A DNA stretch of 64,000 bases. It comes from Anaerolineales bacterium (lineage in GTDB: Bacteria; Chloroflexota; Anaerolineae; Anaerolineales; UBA11858). Below, in pieces: positions 52,906 through 57,731 of this stretch. Every line of letters begins with the position of its first letter. Position 1 is the stretch's first letter. The notes under the pieces were generated by a model. The model was not told the DNA's origin. It worked only from the letters and a program-made list of their open reading frames with translations, and made no database searches. The position numbers and the translations under genes were made by a program. The stretch is from contig JBARSF010000071.1 of the NCBI GenBank assembly GCA_049644605.1, forward strand, positions 38,943-102,942. The letters run 5' to 3'.

Positions 52906-53883
52906 ATGAAGTTCCTTATAGCAGGTTTTGGATCGATAGGACGTCGTCATTTTCGGAATCTCCTGAAACTTGGAGAACGGGAAATTATTTTCTATCGCAC
53001 GGGTCAAAGCACTCTGCCCGGGGAAGAACTTAAGGGATATCCCGTCGAGTCTGATATCCAGGCTGCTTTGTCCCATCGCCCTGACGGGGTGATAATCTCA
53101 AATCCAACTTCGTGTCACCTGGATGTGGCAATTCCTGCAGCGGATATGGGCTGCCACCTGTTAATCGAAAAACCCATCTCCCATTCAATGGATCGTGTAG
53201 AGGAGTTGGAAAAGCTCATTCAGCGAGGACCCTCGAAGGTGCTGGTCGGGTTTCAGTTCCGTTATCATCCAAATCTGAAACAAATTAAGAAATTGCTTGA
53301 TGATCGTGAAATTGGCCAACCATTGGCAGTCCGATCCCATTGGGGAGAATATCTACCTGATTGGCACCCCTGGGAAGATTATCGGACCAGTTACAGCGCC
53401 AGAAAAGACCTGGGTGGCGGGGTTTTATTAACTCTCTGCCATAGTTTTGATTATCTTCACTGGCTTTTTGGACCTCCTGAGGTTTTATGGTCCATTCTGG
53501 GGAATTACAGCGATCTGGACATAGATGTTGAGGATACAGCAGAAGTTGGCTTAATGTTTAACAAGACCATCCTGGGAAGTTTGCACCTCAACTACACTCA
53601 AATTCCAAATAAACATACCCTGGAGATTATCGGCACAAAAGGATCGATCTTCTGGGACTATTATCGAAACACTGTGGATTTATATGTGAGGGAAGAATCT
53701 GGCGAGACCAACAGGACGACTCTCCAAAGCCCTCCTGAATTTGAACGGAACGATCTTTTTTTTGATGAGATGAAACACTTTTTAGAGGTTACCAAAGGAA
53801 ATGCTGAACCTGTTTGCAATCTTCAGGACGGGATTGTTGCCCTTAAAATGGCGCTTCAAGCGAAAACAAAAGGAAGCTCATGA
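52906..53883 (+). CDS. Gfo/Idh/MocA family NAD(P)-dependent oxidoreductase
   Basis: MKFLIAGFGSIGRRH Rossmann N-terminus and the LLIEKPIS motif. Confidence 0.85.
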   Translation: MKFLIAGFGSIGRRHFRNLLKLGEREIIFYRTGQSTLPGEELKGYPVESDIQAALSHRPDGVIISNPTSCHLDVAIPAADMGCHLLIEKPISHSMDRVEELEKLIQRGPSKVLVGFQFRYHPNLKQIKKLLDDREIGQPLAVRSHWGEYLPDWHPWEDYRTSYSARKDLGGGVLLTLCHSFDYLHWLFGPPEVLWSILGNYSDLDIDVEDTAEVGLMFNKTILGSLHLNYTQIPNKHTLEIIGTKGSIFWDYYRNTVDLYVREESGETNRTTLQSPPEFERNDLFFDEMKHFLEVTKGNAEPVCNLQDGIVALKMALQAKTKGSS

Positions 53884-54161
53884 AGAAATTAGAACCTCGC
53901 ATACTATTTAGAAACCTGCTGATTGAAATCATCATCTACAGCGCACTGATATTTGGATATTATCTACTTGTCCTGCGCTATTTAGGTGATTGGCTGTTAT
54001 CCATCTTTCAATCAAATCTGGTCCTTTATGCCTTCTCAGGTTTAGGTTTAATTGTCCTTCAGGCAGTATTGCTGTATTTTGTGACATTAGTTTTATTGAA
54101 ATTTATCAAATTGGATCAATTTGGAATCAGGAGAGTATTGGATGTATTTTCCAATCGCTGA
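53880..54161 (+). CDS. Small membrane protein (93 aa)
   Basis: Two to three hydrophobic helices. It overlaps the upstream stop (ATGA) and the downstream TauE gene start. No family recognised. Confidence 0.5.
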   Translation: MKKLEPRILFRNLLIEIIIYSALIFGYYLLVLRYLGDWLLSIFQSNLVLYAFSGLGLIVLQAVLLYFVTLVLLKFIKLDQFGIRRVLDVFSNR

Positions 54162-55047
54162 TGTCACAATCAACCCCATCCTGCTGATGAGTGTAGGCTT
54201 TTTAGTGGGTATTCTGGGTGGTTTTTTTGGCGTTGGGGGAGGGTTTTTGGCAGGCCCGATGATGTTCTGGACTGGTGTGCCGATGAATTTTGTGATCGGA
54301 ACAGACCTGGCGCATATGACTGGGAAATCAATTGTGGCGGCCCGTACCCATCGAGCCCTGGGACACGTGGACCTGAAACTGGGAATGTATATGGTACTGA
54401 GTACTATTGTTGGTGTGGAGATTGGAGCCAGGATCGTTGAAGCACTTCAGGATACAGGAGCAATTGACATTACCATTGGGATCACATACATTGTCATTCT
54501 GGTTTGCATCAGCTTCTTTACTGCCTGGGAAAGCATCCGGGCCATCCAGATGGTCCGGACAGATCAAATTGATGTCAAAGAAGCGATCGGTTTTAAAGGT
54601 TTAGCAAAGCGGATCCAGGCTGTTAATATTCCCCCGATGGTTTCATTCCCGGTTTCTGGTATTGAATGCATTTCGATTTGGATGGTATTAGGTGTAGGCC
54701 TCTTTACGGGATTGCTGGCTGGAAGTCTGGGCGTTGGGGGAGGGTTTATCAGAATGCCAATGCTGGTATATGTGTTGGGGGTTCCAACCCATGTAGCGGT
54801 GGGAACAGATTTATTTGAAATCATATTCTCTTCTGGTTTTGGCACGATCACCCATGCGATTAAAGGAAATGTGGATATCTTAATGGCTCTGGTGATGCAA
54901 ACAGGGGCAGTGATTGGGGCTCAAATAGGCGCAACAGCTACTCGGTTTTTCGCTGGTCCCCGGATTCGTCTGGCTTTTTCTTTTTTGCCGCTTATTGGTG
55001 CAGTACTGGTTGTAATACGATTGGCAGGTAGTGGTTTGATGCATTAA
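54142..55047 (+). CDS. TauE/SafE (TSUP) family anion permease
   Basis: Polytopic protein with the duplicated GGFFGVGGGFLAGPMM / GSLGVGGGFIRMPML signature of the family. ATG 54142 has AGGAGAG upstream. Confidence 0.85.
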   Translation: MYFPIADVTINPILLMSVGFLVGILGGFFGVGGGFLAGPMMFWTGVPMNFVIGTDLAHMTGKSIVAARTHRALGHVDLKLGMYMVLSTIVGVEIGARIVEALQDTGAIDITIGITYIVILVCISFFTAWESIRAIQMVRTDQIDVKEAIGFKGLAKRIQAVNIPPMVSFPVSGIECISIWMVLGVGLFTGLLAGSLGVGGGFIRMPMLVYVLGVPTHVAVGTDLFEIIFSSGFGTITHAIKGNVDILMALVMQTGAVIGAQIGATATRFFAGPRIRLAFSFLPLIGAVLVVIRLAGSGLMH

Positions 55048-55065: not shown

Positions 55066-55887
55066 ATGAAAATATTGATCTATTTGGATAGTGAGAAATA
55101 TACCCACCCCCCGGTTTTAATGGGAAAGATCATTGCTAAGGCAACCAAAGCCAAGGTAAATGTACTGGTGGTTATTCCGAAAAGTGGACATCCTGAAAAT
55201 GGAGATGCAGTAGCTGACCAGGTTAAGACAGACCTGGAGGGGCTTTCTCCCCGGATCTCTATCAAACAAGGCCGTTCTAGTGAAATCATAAAAGATGAAC
55301 TGCTTCAAGAGCAATATCAGCTGGTGATCACCAATGCTGATCGGATAAACCGCTTCAGGAAATCTGTGGAGGTCGATCCAATATTGATAAAGCAGTCAAC
55401 TATCTCTGTATTGATCACGCAGAACACGAAACCTAAAATTGATAAAATCCTGTTATGTTCGGCATGCAAAGAAGGCGACTTTTCCTTGATCACCCAGGGA
55501 GCAAATTTTGCCAATGATCTGGGAGCTTCGGTGACACTGCTCCATGTTTTTGCTGGTGCAGTGCCGACCATGTATACCGGATTAGATCAAATTGAAGAAA
55601 CAGTTGAAGAAATTTTACAAACCGACACACCCTTTGCCCAGCATCTAAGGCGAGGTGTAGAAATTCTGCAAGATCTGGGCATTAACTCCGAGGTGAAAAT
55701 CCGTCATGGTATCCCCATTGAAGAGATTATCCGGGAAACGCAGTTTAATAACTACGATTTGGTTTTAATCGGTTCATCAAAAGTAAATGAAGGTCTTATA
55801 GAAATGTTATTGGGCAATCTTACTTTGAAAATAATTGATCGAGTGGAATTGCCTGTCCTGGTGATTGGAACCAGGGTCTTAAGCTAA
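55066..55887 (+). CDS. Tandem universal stress protein (UspA family)
   Basis: Two USP-like halves. The second carries VTLLHV, LVLIGSS and LPVLVIG motifs. Confidence 0.7.
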   Translation: MKILIYLDSEKYTHPPVLMGKIIAKATKAKVNVLVVIPKSGHPENGDAVADQVKTDLEGLSPRISIKQGRSSEIIKDELLQEQYQLVITNADRINRFRKSVEVDPILIKQSTISVLITQNTKPKIDKILLCSACKEGDFSLITQGANFANDLGASVTLLHVFAGAVPTMYTGLDQIEETVEEILQTDTPFAQHLRRGVEILQDLGINSEVKIRHGIPIEEIIRETQFNNYDLVLIGSSKVNEGLIEMLLGNLTLKIIDRVELPVLVIGTRVLS

Positions 55888-55988
55888 AACGCTGGAGCGT
55901 GATAATTTACCGTGTATGGTATCATATCCAGTCGATTTTTGAAAAAAAAGACTCCAAATATGGAGAAATAAATTACGAAAATTAGGAG

Positions 55989-57731
55989 ATGTGTAGCGCT
56001 ATGAAGAATAACGAAAAGATCATTGATCCCTATGGTGGTGAGTTGGTAAATCTTCTTCTACCGGATCAGGAAAAAGAAGATTGGGTGGAGAAAGCTAATC
56101 AATATCCATCCCATCAGCTGTCAGACCGCTCTCTGCATGATCTTGAGCTCCTGACTGTGGGTGGATTTTCTCCCCTGAATTCCTTTATGGGTGAGGAAGA
56201 TTACCACCGGGTATTAACTGAAATGAGATTGGCGAATGGGCAGCTGTTCCCAATTCCGATAACCCTGACAATTGAGAAAGAAGTACTCCCTACCCGCGGT
56301 GAATGGATTACCTTAAGAGATTCCAGGAATTACATCATTGCTGTCATGAAAATTGAAGAAGTATACCGCTGGGATCCTATCCGGGAAGCCAGACTGGTGC
56401 TAGGTTCTACGGATCATCGCCACCCCCTTGTGTCAGAGATGGAACAGTGGGGCGATTTATGTATTTCAGGAGAGTTGAGGGTTATTAACCTGCCGGTTTA
56501 TTATGATTTTACAGATATTCGAAAAACCCCTCAAGAAGTCCGAGAAATCTTAGAAAAGATAGGAAATAAAAATGTAACTGCCTTCCAAACCAGGAATCCG
56601 ATGCACAGGGTGCATGAAGACCTGACTAAAAGGGCATGGGAAAGAGTTGGTGGAAGTTTGCTTATTCATCCAGTAGTCGGGATGACTAAACCTGGTGATG
56701 TTGACCACTATACACGGGTTCGGGTCTACAAAGCGCTGGTAGAGAATTATTACGATAAAAATACCGTTTTGAGTCTACTACCACTAGCTATGCGCATGGC
56801 CGGTCCGCGGGAAGCCATTTGGCATGCAATCATTCGGCGGAACTATGGTGCCAACCATTTTATTGTCGGTAGAGACCATGCTGGTCCGGGGAAGGACAGC
56901 AACGGGCAACCATTTTATGGTCCTTATGAAGCCCAAGAGATGATTACGCAGTATCAAGAAGAAACCGGGGTGACACCAGTGTTATTTAATGAGCTGGTTT
57001 ACATAGAAAAAGAAGACAAATATGTTGCTCGGGAAGAGGCACCTGAGGATGCTGAAGCAAAATTCATTTCTGGGACTCAGGTTCGGGAAGAGTACCTCAA
57101 TAAAGGAAAAGAACTTCCCGCCTGGTTTACCCGCAAGGAAACTGCAGAAATTTTAAGAGATTCCTATCCACCGCTTTACAAACAAGGATTATGCATCTGG
57201 TTTACCGGTTTAAGCGGTTCAGGAAAATCCACCATTGCCAATGCGCTGACCCCGATGCTCCTTGAGCACGGTCGAGAGGCGACCACACTGGATGGTGATG
57301 TAGTCCGCACGCATCTGTCAAAAGGACTGGGTTTCAGTAAAGAAGACCGGGATACAAACATTCTCCGGATCGGGTTTGTGGCCGGTGAGATTGCTCGACA
57401 TACCGGGACAGTGATTTGCGCTGCTATCAGCCCCTACAGTAAAACTCGAAACGAAGCCAGAAAAATGGTCGGTAAAGATCAATTTGTTGAGATCTTTGTC
57501 AACACACCTCTGGAAGTGTGTGAAGAAAGAGATATCAAGGGTCTTTATGCAAAAGCACGCAGCGGCGAGATTAAAGGTTTCACTGGAATAGATGATCCCT
57601 ATGAAGAACCTGTAAATCCAGAAATTTCCGTTACAACAGAAAAGAAATCCCCCAAGCAGTGTGCCCAGGAAATTATTGACTACCTGGAAGGCCGCGGATT
57701 CCTGAAACCGGATGGATTTTCATCCAACTAG
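55989..57731 (+). CDS. sat-cysC: Bifunctional sulfate adenylyltransferase / adenylylsulfate kinase (PAPS synthase)
   Basis: The N-terminal ATP-sulfurylase has the [11 protein letters not shown] and [12 protein letters not shown] motifs. The C-terminal APS kinase has P-loop [13 protein letters not shown] and the LDGDVVR motif. Confidence 0.93.

Follow-up and report, generated by a model that had tools for sequence, protein, structure and literature searches.

A fused ATP sulfurylase/APS kinase gene beside sulfotransferase genes in a putative cell-surface glycan locus of an Anaerolineales bacterium

Introduction

Dedicated genes for the supply of PAPS are found beside sulfotransferases in the rhizobia (NodPQ with NodH) and in Xanthomonas (RaxPQ with RaxST). 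NodPQ and RaxPQ are enzymes of the CysD/CysN-CysC type and are known second copies. To our knowledge, the production of sulfated glycans is not known for the Chloroflexota group to which the Anaerolineales bacterium studied here belongs. The universal stress proteins (USPs) Rv2623 and TeaD bind ATP. In M. tuberculosis (Rv2623-Rv1747) and Halomonas (TeaD-TeaABC), a cytoplasmic USP is coupled genetically or physically to a transporter, which it modulates (PMC5549992). CysP, which is encoded in the Bacillus subtilis cysH-cysP-sat-cysC operon, is a sulfate permease of the PiT family (PMC5840216, PMC11535334). In the TauE family (TSUP), TK06_RS10770 of P. fluorescens complements E. coli cysA (PMC11535334) and CysZ of C. 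glutamicum is a sulfate importer (PMC5840216). These two and Acidovorax Ac3H11_578 are linked to sulfate adenylyltransferase by genomic context or by fitness, and neither source mentions a small membrane or USP partner of these importers (PMC11535334, PMC5840216). The APS kinase domain of the fused Aquifex aeolicus enzyme is described as enzymatically active in the passage of PMC3779200 that cites Hanna 2002 and Yu 2007.

Results

The window, i.e., the whole stretch of DNA that was analysed, comprises 64,000 nucleotides of the contig JBARSF010000071.1 (GCA_049644605.1, positions 38,943 to 102,942). In the first-pass annotation, a small membrane protein, a TauE permease, a tandem USP and a fused Sat-CysC were described as a single module; all four open reading frames lie on the + strand where they had been placed, and they form two units, the small protein/TauE/USP trio and a string headed by Sat-CysC. 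The Pfam scan of the window covered ORFs of 120 aa or more that are not nested in others; four shorter ORFs within longer ones were left out. The features are as follows.

32508..34702, +: Wzm/Wzt ABC exporter (Pfam ABC2_membrane; ABC_tran + Wzt_C)
39548-40345, 40361-41233 and 41247-42161, -: three tandem sulfotransferases (Pfam Sulfotransfer_3, Sulfotransfer_1)
50598: GT2 glycosyltransferase (Pfam)
51591: GT4 glycosyltransferase (Pfam)
52906..53883, +: GFO/IDH/MocA-family sugar oxidoreductase (Pfam PF01408/PF02894/PF22725)
53880..54161, +: membrane protein of 93 aa and of no known family, predicted to have two hydrophobic helices (conserved ORF)
54142..55047, +: TauE/TSUP-family permease, 301 aa (PF01925, E 6e-42)
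55066..55887, +: tandem USP, 273 aa (Pfam Usp on residues 126-267)
55913..55939, +: intergenic block shared by 11 close relatives, made up of TG-n-TATCAT (extended -10-like) and then ATCCAGTCGATTTT
56001..57731, +: Sat-CysC, a PAPS synthase of the Aquifex type in which ATP sulfurylase is fused to APS kinase, 576 aa (Pfam, NCBIfam and PDB match)
57805..58638, +: short-chain dehydrogenase (SDR), at the head of the cassette that accompanies Sat-CysC (Pfam adh_short)
58623..59849, +: CMP-sugar cytidylyltransferase fused to a KdsC-like HAD phosphatase (Pfam CTP_transf_3, Hydrolase_3)
59864..60775, +: NeuB-family synthase of a sialic-acid-like keto sugar acid (PF03102, E 7e-81)
60803..61522, +: SAM-dependent methyltransferase (Pfam Methyltransf_12/25)
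61627..63228, +: glycosyltransferase weakly resembling Capsule_synth and the BFO_1060 family (PF05159, E 6e-5)
63228..64000, +: fourth sulfotransferase (ST4), truncated where the window ends (Pfam Sulfotransfer_1, E 7e-8)

The placing of PAPS genes beside sulfotransferases is a known kind of arrangement, which here has new parts. As with NodPQ and RaxPQ, sulfate-activation genes are grouped with sulfotransferases and acceptor-building genes, so that the donor would be made where it is used; the locus differs in its fused Sat-CysC and attached permease cassette, and CysD and CysN were not found by tblastn with the E. coli queries. It resembles the B. subtilis operon in that a secondary permease gene, here for a probable sulfate transporter, adjoins sat and cysC, but the permease is of the TSUP type with two partner genes, cysH is missing, and sulfotransferase and sugar genes take the place of assimilation genes as neighbours.

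Sat-CysC is, as judged from its sequence, an intact enzyme of the Aquifex aeolicus type with two activities, because the domains, the catalytic motifs, the NCBIfam equivalog cut-off and the structural match agree. The PUA_2, ATP-sulfurylase and APS_kinase domains were found with E values of 1e-44 to 9e-84 (Pfam), NF004040 (bifunctional SAT/APS kinase) scored 843 bits against a cut-off of 669, PDB 2GKS matched over the full length (E 9e-230), and the sulfurylase motifs, the kinase P-loop and the DGD motif are retained. The order of domains (PUA-like, sulfurylase, C-terminal APS kinase) is shared with the Aquifex aeolicus enzyme (2GKS, NF004040), from which it differs in its P-loop (GLSGSGKST versus GLPCAGKST) and in lying among glycan and sulfotransferase genes. 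Its expected product is PAPS, formed via APS from sulfate and two ATP. The fusion reported in the first-pass annotation was thus upheld but its length of 580 aa was not: the frame is open from 55989, the start was taken as 56001, and the exact 576-aa product is on record elsewhere, with no record of the 580-aa version.

The block at 55913..55939 is kept in 11 close relatives while the intergenic sequence on either side varies, and it is probably a separate promoter for Sat-CysC. A generic promoter scan of the region returned no more sites than were found in shuffled sequence. ST4 belongs to the same gene string as Sat-CysC; it carries the motifs PKAGSHLL, RDPRDQLVS and RKGQPGNWK and is about 288 aa long in the relatives. 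Within the string, the CMP/HAD fusion matched the NCBIfam models of PseF, KdsC and Kdn-9-P phosphatase, each below its cut-off, as was the match of the glycosyltransferase to NF046086 (E 1e-9). With GT2, GT4 and this Capsule_synth-like gene, the earlier placement of the four genes among glycosyltransferases was borne out. Together with ST4, the three tandem genes upstream of the four noted genes bring the sulfotransferases in the window to four. The tandem genes lie where the glycan cluster is variable and low in GC (0.387 at 40-42 kb), and in the relatives no counterparts turned up within 10 kb of Sat-CysC. Wzt has a C-terminal glycan-binding domain (Pfam Wzt_C), and the presence of the Wzm/Wzt exporter implies that the polymer is assembled in the cytoplasm, where PAPS is available.

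The 93-aa ORF had been described as overlapping the permease start and is, on its pattern of conservation, a real gene. In 16 related genomes, TauE is preceded by an intact ORF of 81-93 aa, pN/pS was 0.23 compared with 0.82 in a shifted-frame control, and the mismatches by codon position were 0.28/0.12/0.49. Its start codon shares nucleotides with the stop codon of the preceding GFO oxidoreductase gene (ATGA). The protein had no Pfam or NCBIfam match and no homology to TauE, and of the 668 database homologues found in a profile search none carries a Pfam domain. Translation of TauE probably does not begin at the listed TTG (54121). The ATG at 54142 is preferred; it is preceded by a Shine-Dalgarno-like AGGAGA, and the resulting protein of 301 aa is 100% identical to one that NCBI has annotated in an Anaerolineales bacterium MAG. 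With this start the overlap with the small ORF is 20 nt, which matches independent gene calls on a relative. The assignment to the TauE/TSUP family was sound; the protein contains a pair of internal repeats, and a central loop with some 35 additional residues is conserved in its subfamily. It is likened to TK06_RS10770, Ac3H11_578 and CysZ by membership of the same Pfam family. No solved structure was detectable for it by sequence. The two halves of the USP are homologous (hhalign probability 98.6%, E 7.5e-16), so the description as a tandem USP holds, although the N domain is degenerate and the Pfam match is confined to the C-terminal part. The suggestion of an ATP-binding fold fared less well: in the alignment, the C domain reads G-S-S-K-x10-G-N in place of the canonical G-x2-G-x9-G-S/T, and the protein differs from Rv2623 and TeaD in this as well as in its tandem form and degenerate first domain.

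The distribution of these genes in the relatives shows that the trio is an autonomous unit, separate from Sat-CysC. Its members were all present or all absent in the genome loci (15/15/15), and in the metagenome loci the USP accompanied TauE in 51/51, even where USP identity drops to 28-37%, with the small protein upstream of TauE in 36/37. In the close clade, Sat-CysC directly follows the USP in 21/21 metagenome and 15/15 genome loci, and the adjacency recurs in a second, divergent subclade with a USP identity of about 35% (L028, L031, L034, L128, L131). In distant Chloroflexota the trio lies among housekeeping genes without Sat-CysC in 9/11 loci, and it is absent from many Anaerolineales that retain Sat-CysC with its cassette and have no adjoining permease. 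These observations and the conserved block before Sat-CysC spoke against the single four-gene module that had been proposed.

In 45 related loci the sequence continues for at least 8 kb past Sat-CysC; among these, the SDR, CMP/HAD and NeuB genes were found downstream in 38 (down to 63% Sat-CysC identity), an ST4 homologue in 34 and the glycosyltransferase type of 61627..63228 in 32. Past ST4, the genes of the relatives are still glycan genes. Upstream, the GFO oxidoreductase was present in 37/57 related loci. In other relatives, a Sulfotransfer_2 gene separates GFO from the small ORF, or Sat-CysC is directly followed by a Sulfotransfer_3 gene. No cysH, cysI/J, cysD/N or cysQ was found within about 10 kb of Sat-CysC in 78 related loci; tblastn with E. 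coli CysH, CysI, CysJ, CysD, CysN and CysQ gave 0 matches in 1.26 Mb (the 78 loci and the window), while the CysC control matched 78/78 loci. The earlier remark that the window has no CysQ-type PAP phosphatase agrees with both the Pfam and the E. coli CysQ tblastn searches.

Discussion

In this study, we attempted to explain why a bacterium of the Anaerolineales carries a PAPS synthase among glycan genes. The region appears to be part of a cell-surface glycan locus whose owner makes its own sulfate donor, PAPS. The four sulfotransferases in the cluster, the conserved linkage of Sat-CysC to sulfotransferase and NeuB/CMP-sugar genes across the Anaerolineales and the lack of assimilation genes within about 10 kb agree with the earlier proposal, and PAPS supply for glycan sulfation rather than sulfur assimilation is a well-supported reading of the gene content. 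Sat-CysC heads a string with its own promoter-like block, followed by the SDR, CMP-transferase/phosphatase, NeuB-type synthase, methyltransferase, glycosyltransferase and sulfotransferase. This string may make a CMP-activated, sialic-acid-like keto sugar acid, which, itself or as part of its glycan, would then be sulfated with PAPS in the cytoplasm, and the three upstream sulfotransferases may decorate the polymer that is exported by Wzm/Wzt. The PAP by-product would have to be cleared by a phosphatase encoded elsewhere. A separate, apparently translationally coupled unit immediately upstream consists of the GFO oxidoreductase, the 93-aa membrane protein, TauE and then the tandem USP. TauE may import sulfate or a similar sulfur oxyanion, with the small protein as its putative membrane subunit or assembly partner, and the USP could perhaps be its cytoplasmic regulator, probably without a classical ATP site. 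The trio appears to be a portable cassette that was put beside Sat-CysC by one Anaerolineales lineage. We estimate the probability of this scheme as a whole at about 0.6.

It is unlikely, in our judgement, that Sat-CysC is simply the sole sulfate-activating enzyme, which feeds cysteine synthesis via a PAPS reductase elsewhere, with an incidental position in the glycan locus or a dual use. Few genes of the locus are as well conserved as Sat-CysC (85-91% identity), and in a deep-sea Chloroflexi MAG study Sat/CysC was assigned to assimilatory sulfate reduction (10.1101/2021.01.05.425403). The genome scan yielded a single copy in each genome, but its patterns are specific to close relatives and therefore blind to a divergent second copy. 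A close relative (L076/L077, 88% identity) keeps the trio and Sat-CysC next to housekeeping genes, with no NeuB/sulfotransferase cassette nearby, and Sat-CysC may thus also serve general needs. Against this stand the absence of cysH, cysI/J and cysQ within about 10 kb in all 78 loci, the persistent linkage to a sulfotransferase (34/45) and to the sugar-acid genes (38/45), and the sulfotransferases that were inserted right next to Sat-CysC in other relatives, all of which favour PAPS supply for glycan sulfation.

TauE is a probable sulfate (oxyanion) transporter. Import of sulfate, which had been suggested earlier, is plausible because TauE-family sulfate importers are known (PMC11535334; PMC5840216). 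Characterised members also include sulfite and sulfoacetate exporters (PMC11535334, PMC5840216), and the trio could instead be unrelated to PAPS synthesis, a mere neighbour in one lineage whose TauE is an exporter of sulfite, a sulfonate or some other anion or moves a different solute. The separate promoter-like block and the 9/11 distant loci without Sat-CysC beside the trio point that way, as do haloarchaeal homologues (about 40% identity), which adjoin persulfide-dioxygenase-like, YeeE, DsrE and TusA genes in contexts resembling sulfide/persulfide oxidation, where sulfite export would fit better. We nevertheless consider this doubtful, given the invariant adjacency in the close clade (21/21 and 15/15 loci) and its recurrence in the divergent subclade; moreover, neither Sat, CysC nor the sulfotransferases yield sulfite needing export, and the family does include sulfate importers. 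Somewhat greater weight, though still short of an even chance, can be given to the USP being no gate of the permease but a general stress or expression factor, a chaperone or a scaffold that is merely co-transcribed. Genes for USPs abound and frequently have unrelated genes as neighbours, and this one has a degenerate N domain and lacks the canonical ATP-binding motif. A role tied to TauE is nonetheless favoured by their co-occurrence in 51/51 loci despite USP identities of 28-37% and by a strongly conserved, family-specific insert in the C domain (VPTMYTGL...EET...LQTDT), which suggests a specific partner or ligand.

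Sulfate-activation genes within a glycan locus

The gene content of the locus and of its relatives suggests that PAPS, the sulfate donor of sulfotransferases, is produced by the Sat-CysC fusion for sulfation, to which we assign a probability of about 0.8. This reading, which the first-pass annotation had put forward for glycans, draws directly on a PAPS synthase whose sequence is intact, on the four sulfotransferases of the cluster, on a conserved linkage of Sat-CysC to a sulfotransferase and to sugar-acid genes and on the absence of assimilation genes nearby. All four ORFs described in that annotation, i.e., a small membrane protein, a TauE permease, a tandem USP and the fused ATP sulfurylase and APS kinase, were recovered at their positions. 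The 580-aa ORF matched the Pfam families PUA_2 (E 1e-44), ATP-sulfurylase (E 9e-84) and APS_kinase (E 2e-65), passed the NCBIfam equivalog NF004040 at full length (843 bits against a cut-off of 669) and aligned end to end with the bifunctional enzyme of Aquifex aeolicus (2GKS, E 9e-230). By sequence, it is thus a known kind of protein that is assigned to the Aquifex-type bifunctional family (NF004040). While the fusion itself stood, its length of 580 aa did not: the start is most likely at 56001, giving a product of 576 aa that was found on record by exact look-up, which returned no record for the 580-aa version. The sulfurylase motifs (a QxRNPxHxxH-type stretch and GRDHAG) can be read in the translation, the C-terminal APS kinase domain carries the Walker A loop GLSGSGKST and a DGD motif (LDGDVVR), and all of these motifs, the kinase P-loop included, are intact. 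Judged by these motifs, the kinase domain is predicted to be of the active and not of the regulatory fungal type; the corresponding domain from Aquifex has enzymatic activity (PMC3779200). The nearest relatives, at 85-91% identity, come from Anaerolineales/Chloroflexota MAGs.

Housekeeping genes (recA, uvrD, tsaE, tsaB, holB and a uracil-DNA glycosylase-family gene, UDG) occupy the window to the left of about 26 kb, and the remainder, up to the window end, is one glycan locus with the following content:

26 kb to window end: UDP-glucose dehydrogenase (UGDH), several epimerases, MBOAT acyltransferase, Wzm/Wzt exporter (Wzt with a Wzt_C domain), formyltransferase, aminotransferase, rmlCBAD, GDP-mannose dehydratase (GMD), fucose-synthase-like gene (FCL), GT2 and GT4 glycosyltransferases
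39548-42161, - strand: three sulfotransferases
63228-64000, + strand, running off the window end: ST4, the fourth sulfotransferase (Sulfotransfer_1, E 7e-8; motifs PKAGSHLL, RDPRDQLVS and RKGQPGNWK)

ST4, which the first-pass annotation did not mention, starts at the stop of a glycosyltransferase within the gene string headed by Sat-CysC and is about 288 aa long in relatives.

Conservation of the Sat-CysC neighbourhood

A scan using one genome per species gave 74 loci with 63-91% identity, to which exact look-ups added four (78 in total). Among the 45 loci with at least 8 kb of downstream sequence, SDR, CMP-transferase/HAD and NeuB genes followed Sat-CysC in 38, an ST4-type sulfotransferase was present in 34 and a Capsule_synth-like glycosyltransferase in 32. 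The linkage of this cassette (57805-64000 in the window, where the HAD phosphatase is KdsC-like; loci L002-L075) to Sat-CysC holds across the Anaerolineales down to 63% identity, which suggests a conserved sulfated, sialic-acid-like sugar. Sulfotransferases of other families also occurred: a Sulfotransfer_2 gene lies between the GFO oxidoreductase gene and the small ORF in L012, L013, L014, L016 and L022, and a Sulfotransfer_3 gene directly follows Sat-CysC in L078, with similar genes in L033, L046, L047 and L062. In more distant Anaerolineales (63-67% identity), Sat-CysC lies between two large multi-pass membrane proteins rather than beside the permease trio, for example:

L038, 7846-9864 and 11782-13377: large membrane proteins flanking Sat-CysC, one of which matches the PMT (GT-C type) family

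The alternative, ordinary sulfur assimilation, is the reading that was given to Sat/CysC in a study of deep-sea Chloroflexi (10.1101/2021.01.05.425403). A study of microbial mats, whose Chloroflexi MAGs yielded no sulfotransferase gene, regards the phylum as degrading sulfated polymers (PMC9723792). A caution on the sulfation side comes from L076/L077 (88% identity), two loci with the order UvrD, TsaE, TsaB, UDG, UGDH, epimerase, GMD, FCL, small ORF, TauE, USP and Sat-CysC, in which pantothenate and other housekeeping genes come after Sat-CysC and no sulfotransferase was found within 10 kb of it. An assimilatory sulfate-reduction operon would place a PAPS/APS reductase and a sulfite reductase next to the activation genes, and neither adjoins them here. 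Across 1.26 Mb, made up of the window plus all 78 loci, tblastn with E. coli CysH, CysI, CysJ, CysD, CysN and CysQ gave no match, and the CysC control matched each of the 78 loci. The scanned ORFs of the window had no Inositol_P, PAPS_reduct or NIR_SIR Pfam match. A regular-expression search for the CysH motif (ECGLH) and the CysQ motifs (DPxDGT, WDxAAG) returned a single match that was judged spurious, and the absence was later confirmed by tblastn. Beyond ST4, the relatives still carry glycan genes. The first-pass annotation had named cysH/sir-type genes just outside the window as a sign of ordinary assimilation; because of the empty tblastn search and the glycan genes beyond ST4, such genes are not next door as far as the relatives show. 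Since the conserved neighbours in this lineage are sulfotransferases and sugar-acid genes, the assimilatory reading of Sat/CysC in Chloroflexota MAGs may need revision.

As in NodPQ/NodH and RaxPQ/RaxST, the donor would be made beside a sulfotransferase and the activation genes are co-located with those that build the acceptor, a likeness of gene co-location. Unlike in NodPQ and RaxPQ, the enzyme is of the Sat type, and tblastn detected no CysD/CysN-type (GTPase-coupled) sulfurylase. The arrangement also recalls cysP-sat-cysC of B. subtilis, but without cysH and with a permease of another family.

The permease trio as a separate unit

Of the 57 genome loci that extend far enough upstream, 15 carry the small ORF, TauE and USP, always all three together; some close relatives (e.g., L016 and L035) lack them. 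When metagenomes were scanned with the USP alignment as the seed, 71 loci were returned, in which TauE preceded USP in 51/51 cases and the small ORF preceded TauE in 36/37. Sat-CysC followed USP in all 21 metagenome loci of the close clade and in only 2/11 loci of the distant one (USP identity 28-40%, TauE 66-72%, GC 41-68%), where the neighbours of the trio were GroEL, a 2-oxoacid oxidoreductase, ABC transporters and sensor kinases. The trio is therefore a unit of its own. In the spacer between USP and Sat-CysC (55913-55939), TG-n-TATCAT followed by ATGCAGTCGATTTT forms a block that is conserved among the close relatives, which suggests that Sat-CysC and its downstream genes are transcribed from a promoter of their own; the block is probably a promoter with its transcript start. 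As a side observation, the same stretch was recorded as TG-n-TATCAT then ATCCAGTCGATTTT, common to the close relatives. Generic promoter and terminator scans of 52.7-58 kb gave no more sites than shuffled sequence, and Rfam found only a tRNA in the whole window, with no riboswitch or other known RNA near the module.

The 93-aa protein (53880-54161) matched no family in Pfam or NCBIfam. Its ORF is a real gene: it is intact, at 81-93 aa, across 16 related genomes, its pN/pS is 0.23 compared to 0.82 in a shifted-frame control, and a profile search found 668 homologues. Its ATG shares bases with the stop codon of the GFO-family oxidoreductase gene that precedes it. That it is a split-off piece of TauE was rejected (hhalign probability 0.2%). 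The TauE start is most likely the ATG at 54142, which is preceded by an AGGAGA motif; the product from this start has 301 aa and matches an NCBI-annotated Anaerolineales protein at every residue. The overlap of the small ORF with the permease start that had been described before is thus retained, and its extent, after this correction, is 20 nt.

By sequence criteria, TauE can be assigned to the TSUP/TauE permeases (PF01925, TC 2.A.102), scoring 144 bits against a gathering score of 32.6 (E 6e-42). It shows the two-repeat TSUP pattern with a conserved central loop: its two halves cross-match a haloarchaeal homologue (E 5e-10 and 1.5e-5), and the motifs GGFFGVGGGF/GTDL and GSLGVGGGF/GTDL are repeated. 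No solved structure was detectable for it by sequence. TSUP permeases are among the least understood of the large transporter families. A TauE-family protein of P. fluorescens restored the growth of E. coli cysA, and the fitness pattern of a homologue tracks that of sulfate adenylyltransferase (PMC11535334). Moreover, CysZ of C. glutamicum is a TSUP protein, and the only candidate sulfate transporters of some sulfate reducers belong to a TSUP clade that is highly conserved (PMC5840216).

In the 273-aa USP (55066-55887), Pfam Usp covers residues 126-267, i.e., the C half, and hhalign aligned the N half with it (probability 98.6%, E 7.5e-16). The N half is therefore a degenerate USP domain, and the description of the protein as a tandem USP, with two domains in one chain as in the UspE-like type, holds. 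Its proposed role as an ATP-binding fold fared less well: the C domain reads G-S-S-K-x10-G-N as opposed to the G-x2-G-x9-G-(S/T) of ATP-binding USPs (MJ0577 type), and the N domain has no nucleotide-binding motif. Some distant homologues retain the second Gly, yet have x10 and G-N/D. ATP binding is therefore not to be assumed. An insert in the C domain, VPTMYTGL...EET...LQTDT, is strongly conserved. There is precedent for USPs acting on transporters (PMC5549992), and our literature search found no description of a TSUP-USP pairing or of a TSUP-USP-small-protein unit.

Proposed mechanism and its bearing

In the scheme that we propose, TauE would supply sulfate, the small protein would be its membrane partner and the USP would act as a regulator, probably without a classical ATP site. 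In the cytoplasm, PAPS from Sat-CysC would serve to sulfate a sialic-acid-like sugar activated with CMP, or its glycan, as well as the polymer that Wzm/Wzt exports. Sulfate import by TauE is slightly favoured, with direction and substrate read from the gene context (Sat-CysC here, sulfur-oxidation-like genes in haloarchaea), and regulation by the USP is a tentative suggestion, with the odds leaning against it. The new elements are the invariant trio and the order-wide Sat-CysC/sulfotransferase/NeuB cassette. We consider a broader, joint proposition unlikely to hold in full: that the small protein, the TSUP permease and the non-canonical tandem USP form one unrecognised transporter of sulfate or sulfur oxyanions that is widespread in Chloroflexota, with a possible haloarchaeal analogue, and that Anaerolineales commonly build a sulfated, sialic-acid-like surface sugar through a cassette of Sat-CysC, SDR, CMP-transferase/phosphatase, NeuB, sulfotransferase and glycosyltransferase. 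Anaerolineales are abundant in marine sediments, mats and digesters and are usually viewed as degraders of sulfated polymers. If the proposition is true, they would produce as well as consume sulfated surface glycans, which has a bearing on the cycling of sulfated organic matter. The invariant three-gene cassette is a concrete, testable unit for studying the substrate, direction and regulation of TSUP permeases.

Haloarchaeal homologues

In a tblastn search of plasmids, haloarchaeal megaplasmids (L153-L157, e.g., NZ_CP039136.1 at 49546-50739) showed homologues of TauE at about 40% identity. In each of the five plasmid loci that were inspected, a hypothetical ORF of 48-57 aa abuts the TauE start, and four of these loci also have an adjacent or nearby USP gene. 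The tiny ORFs had no detectable relation to the 93-aa protein (hhalign probability 0.1%), and the canonical ATP motif is retained in the USPs of the haloarchaea. These loci hint at a recurring architecture, which is not proof of one. The TauE neighbours are sulfur-related, i.e., an MBL-fold hydrolase, whose N-terminal region appears rhodanese-like on reading of its sequence, YeeE/YedE, PiT, DsrE and TusA, a context that agrees with sulfite export no less than with sulfate import.

Other observations in the window

The region of about 28400-46800, which holds the MBOAT, Wzm/Wzt, formyltransferase, aminotransferase, GT4, the three sulfotransferases, rmlCBAD and ORFs without assignment, is absent from the otherwise syntenic L076/L077, drops to a GC content of 0.39 at 28-32 kb and at 40-42 kb and looks like a variable, O-antigen-like insert. 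Three ORFs of the glycan locus (28376-28759, 30116-31144 and 31319-32212, the last on the - strand) had no Pfam match; the one of 342 aa follows the MBOAT gene and has an N-terminal hydrophobic segment. A 299-aa protein without a Pfam match (49698-50597) is paired with a GT2 glycosyltransferase (50598-51587), and this pair recurs in many related loci at 44-74% identity. Just upstream of the GDP-mannose dehydratase lie a 282-aa protein without a family (45928-46776) and a MarR/winged-helix regulator (46875-47432), both conserved in close relatives (regulator at 63-83% identity); because of this conservation, the regulator may control the locus. Among the genes to the left of the glycan locus, at 8533-9381 and 9502-9987 (-), a full DegV gene adjoins a second ORF that covers only the C-terminal half of a DegV domain and may be a truncated duplicate or have a mis-set start.
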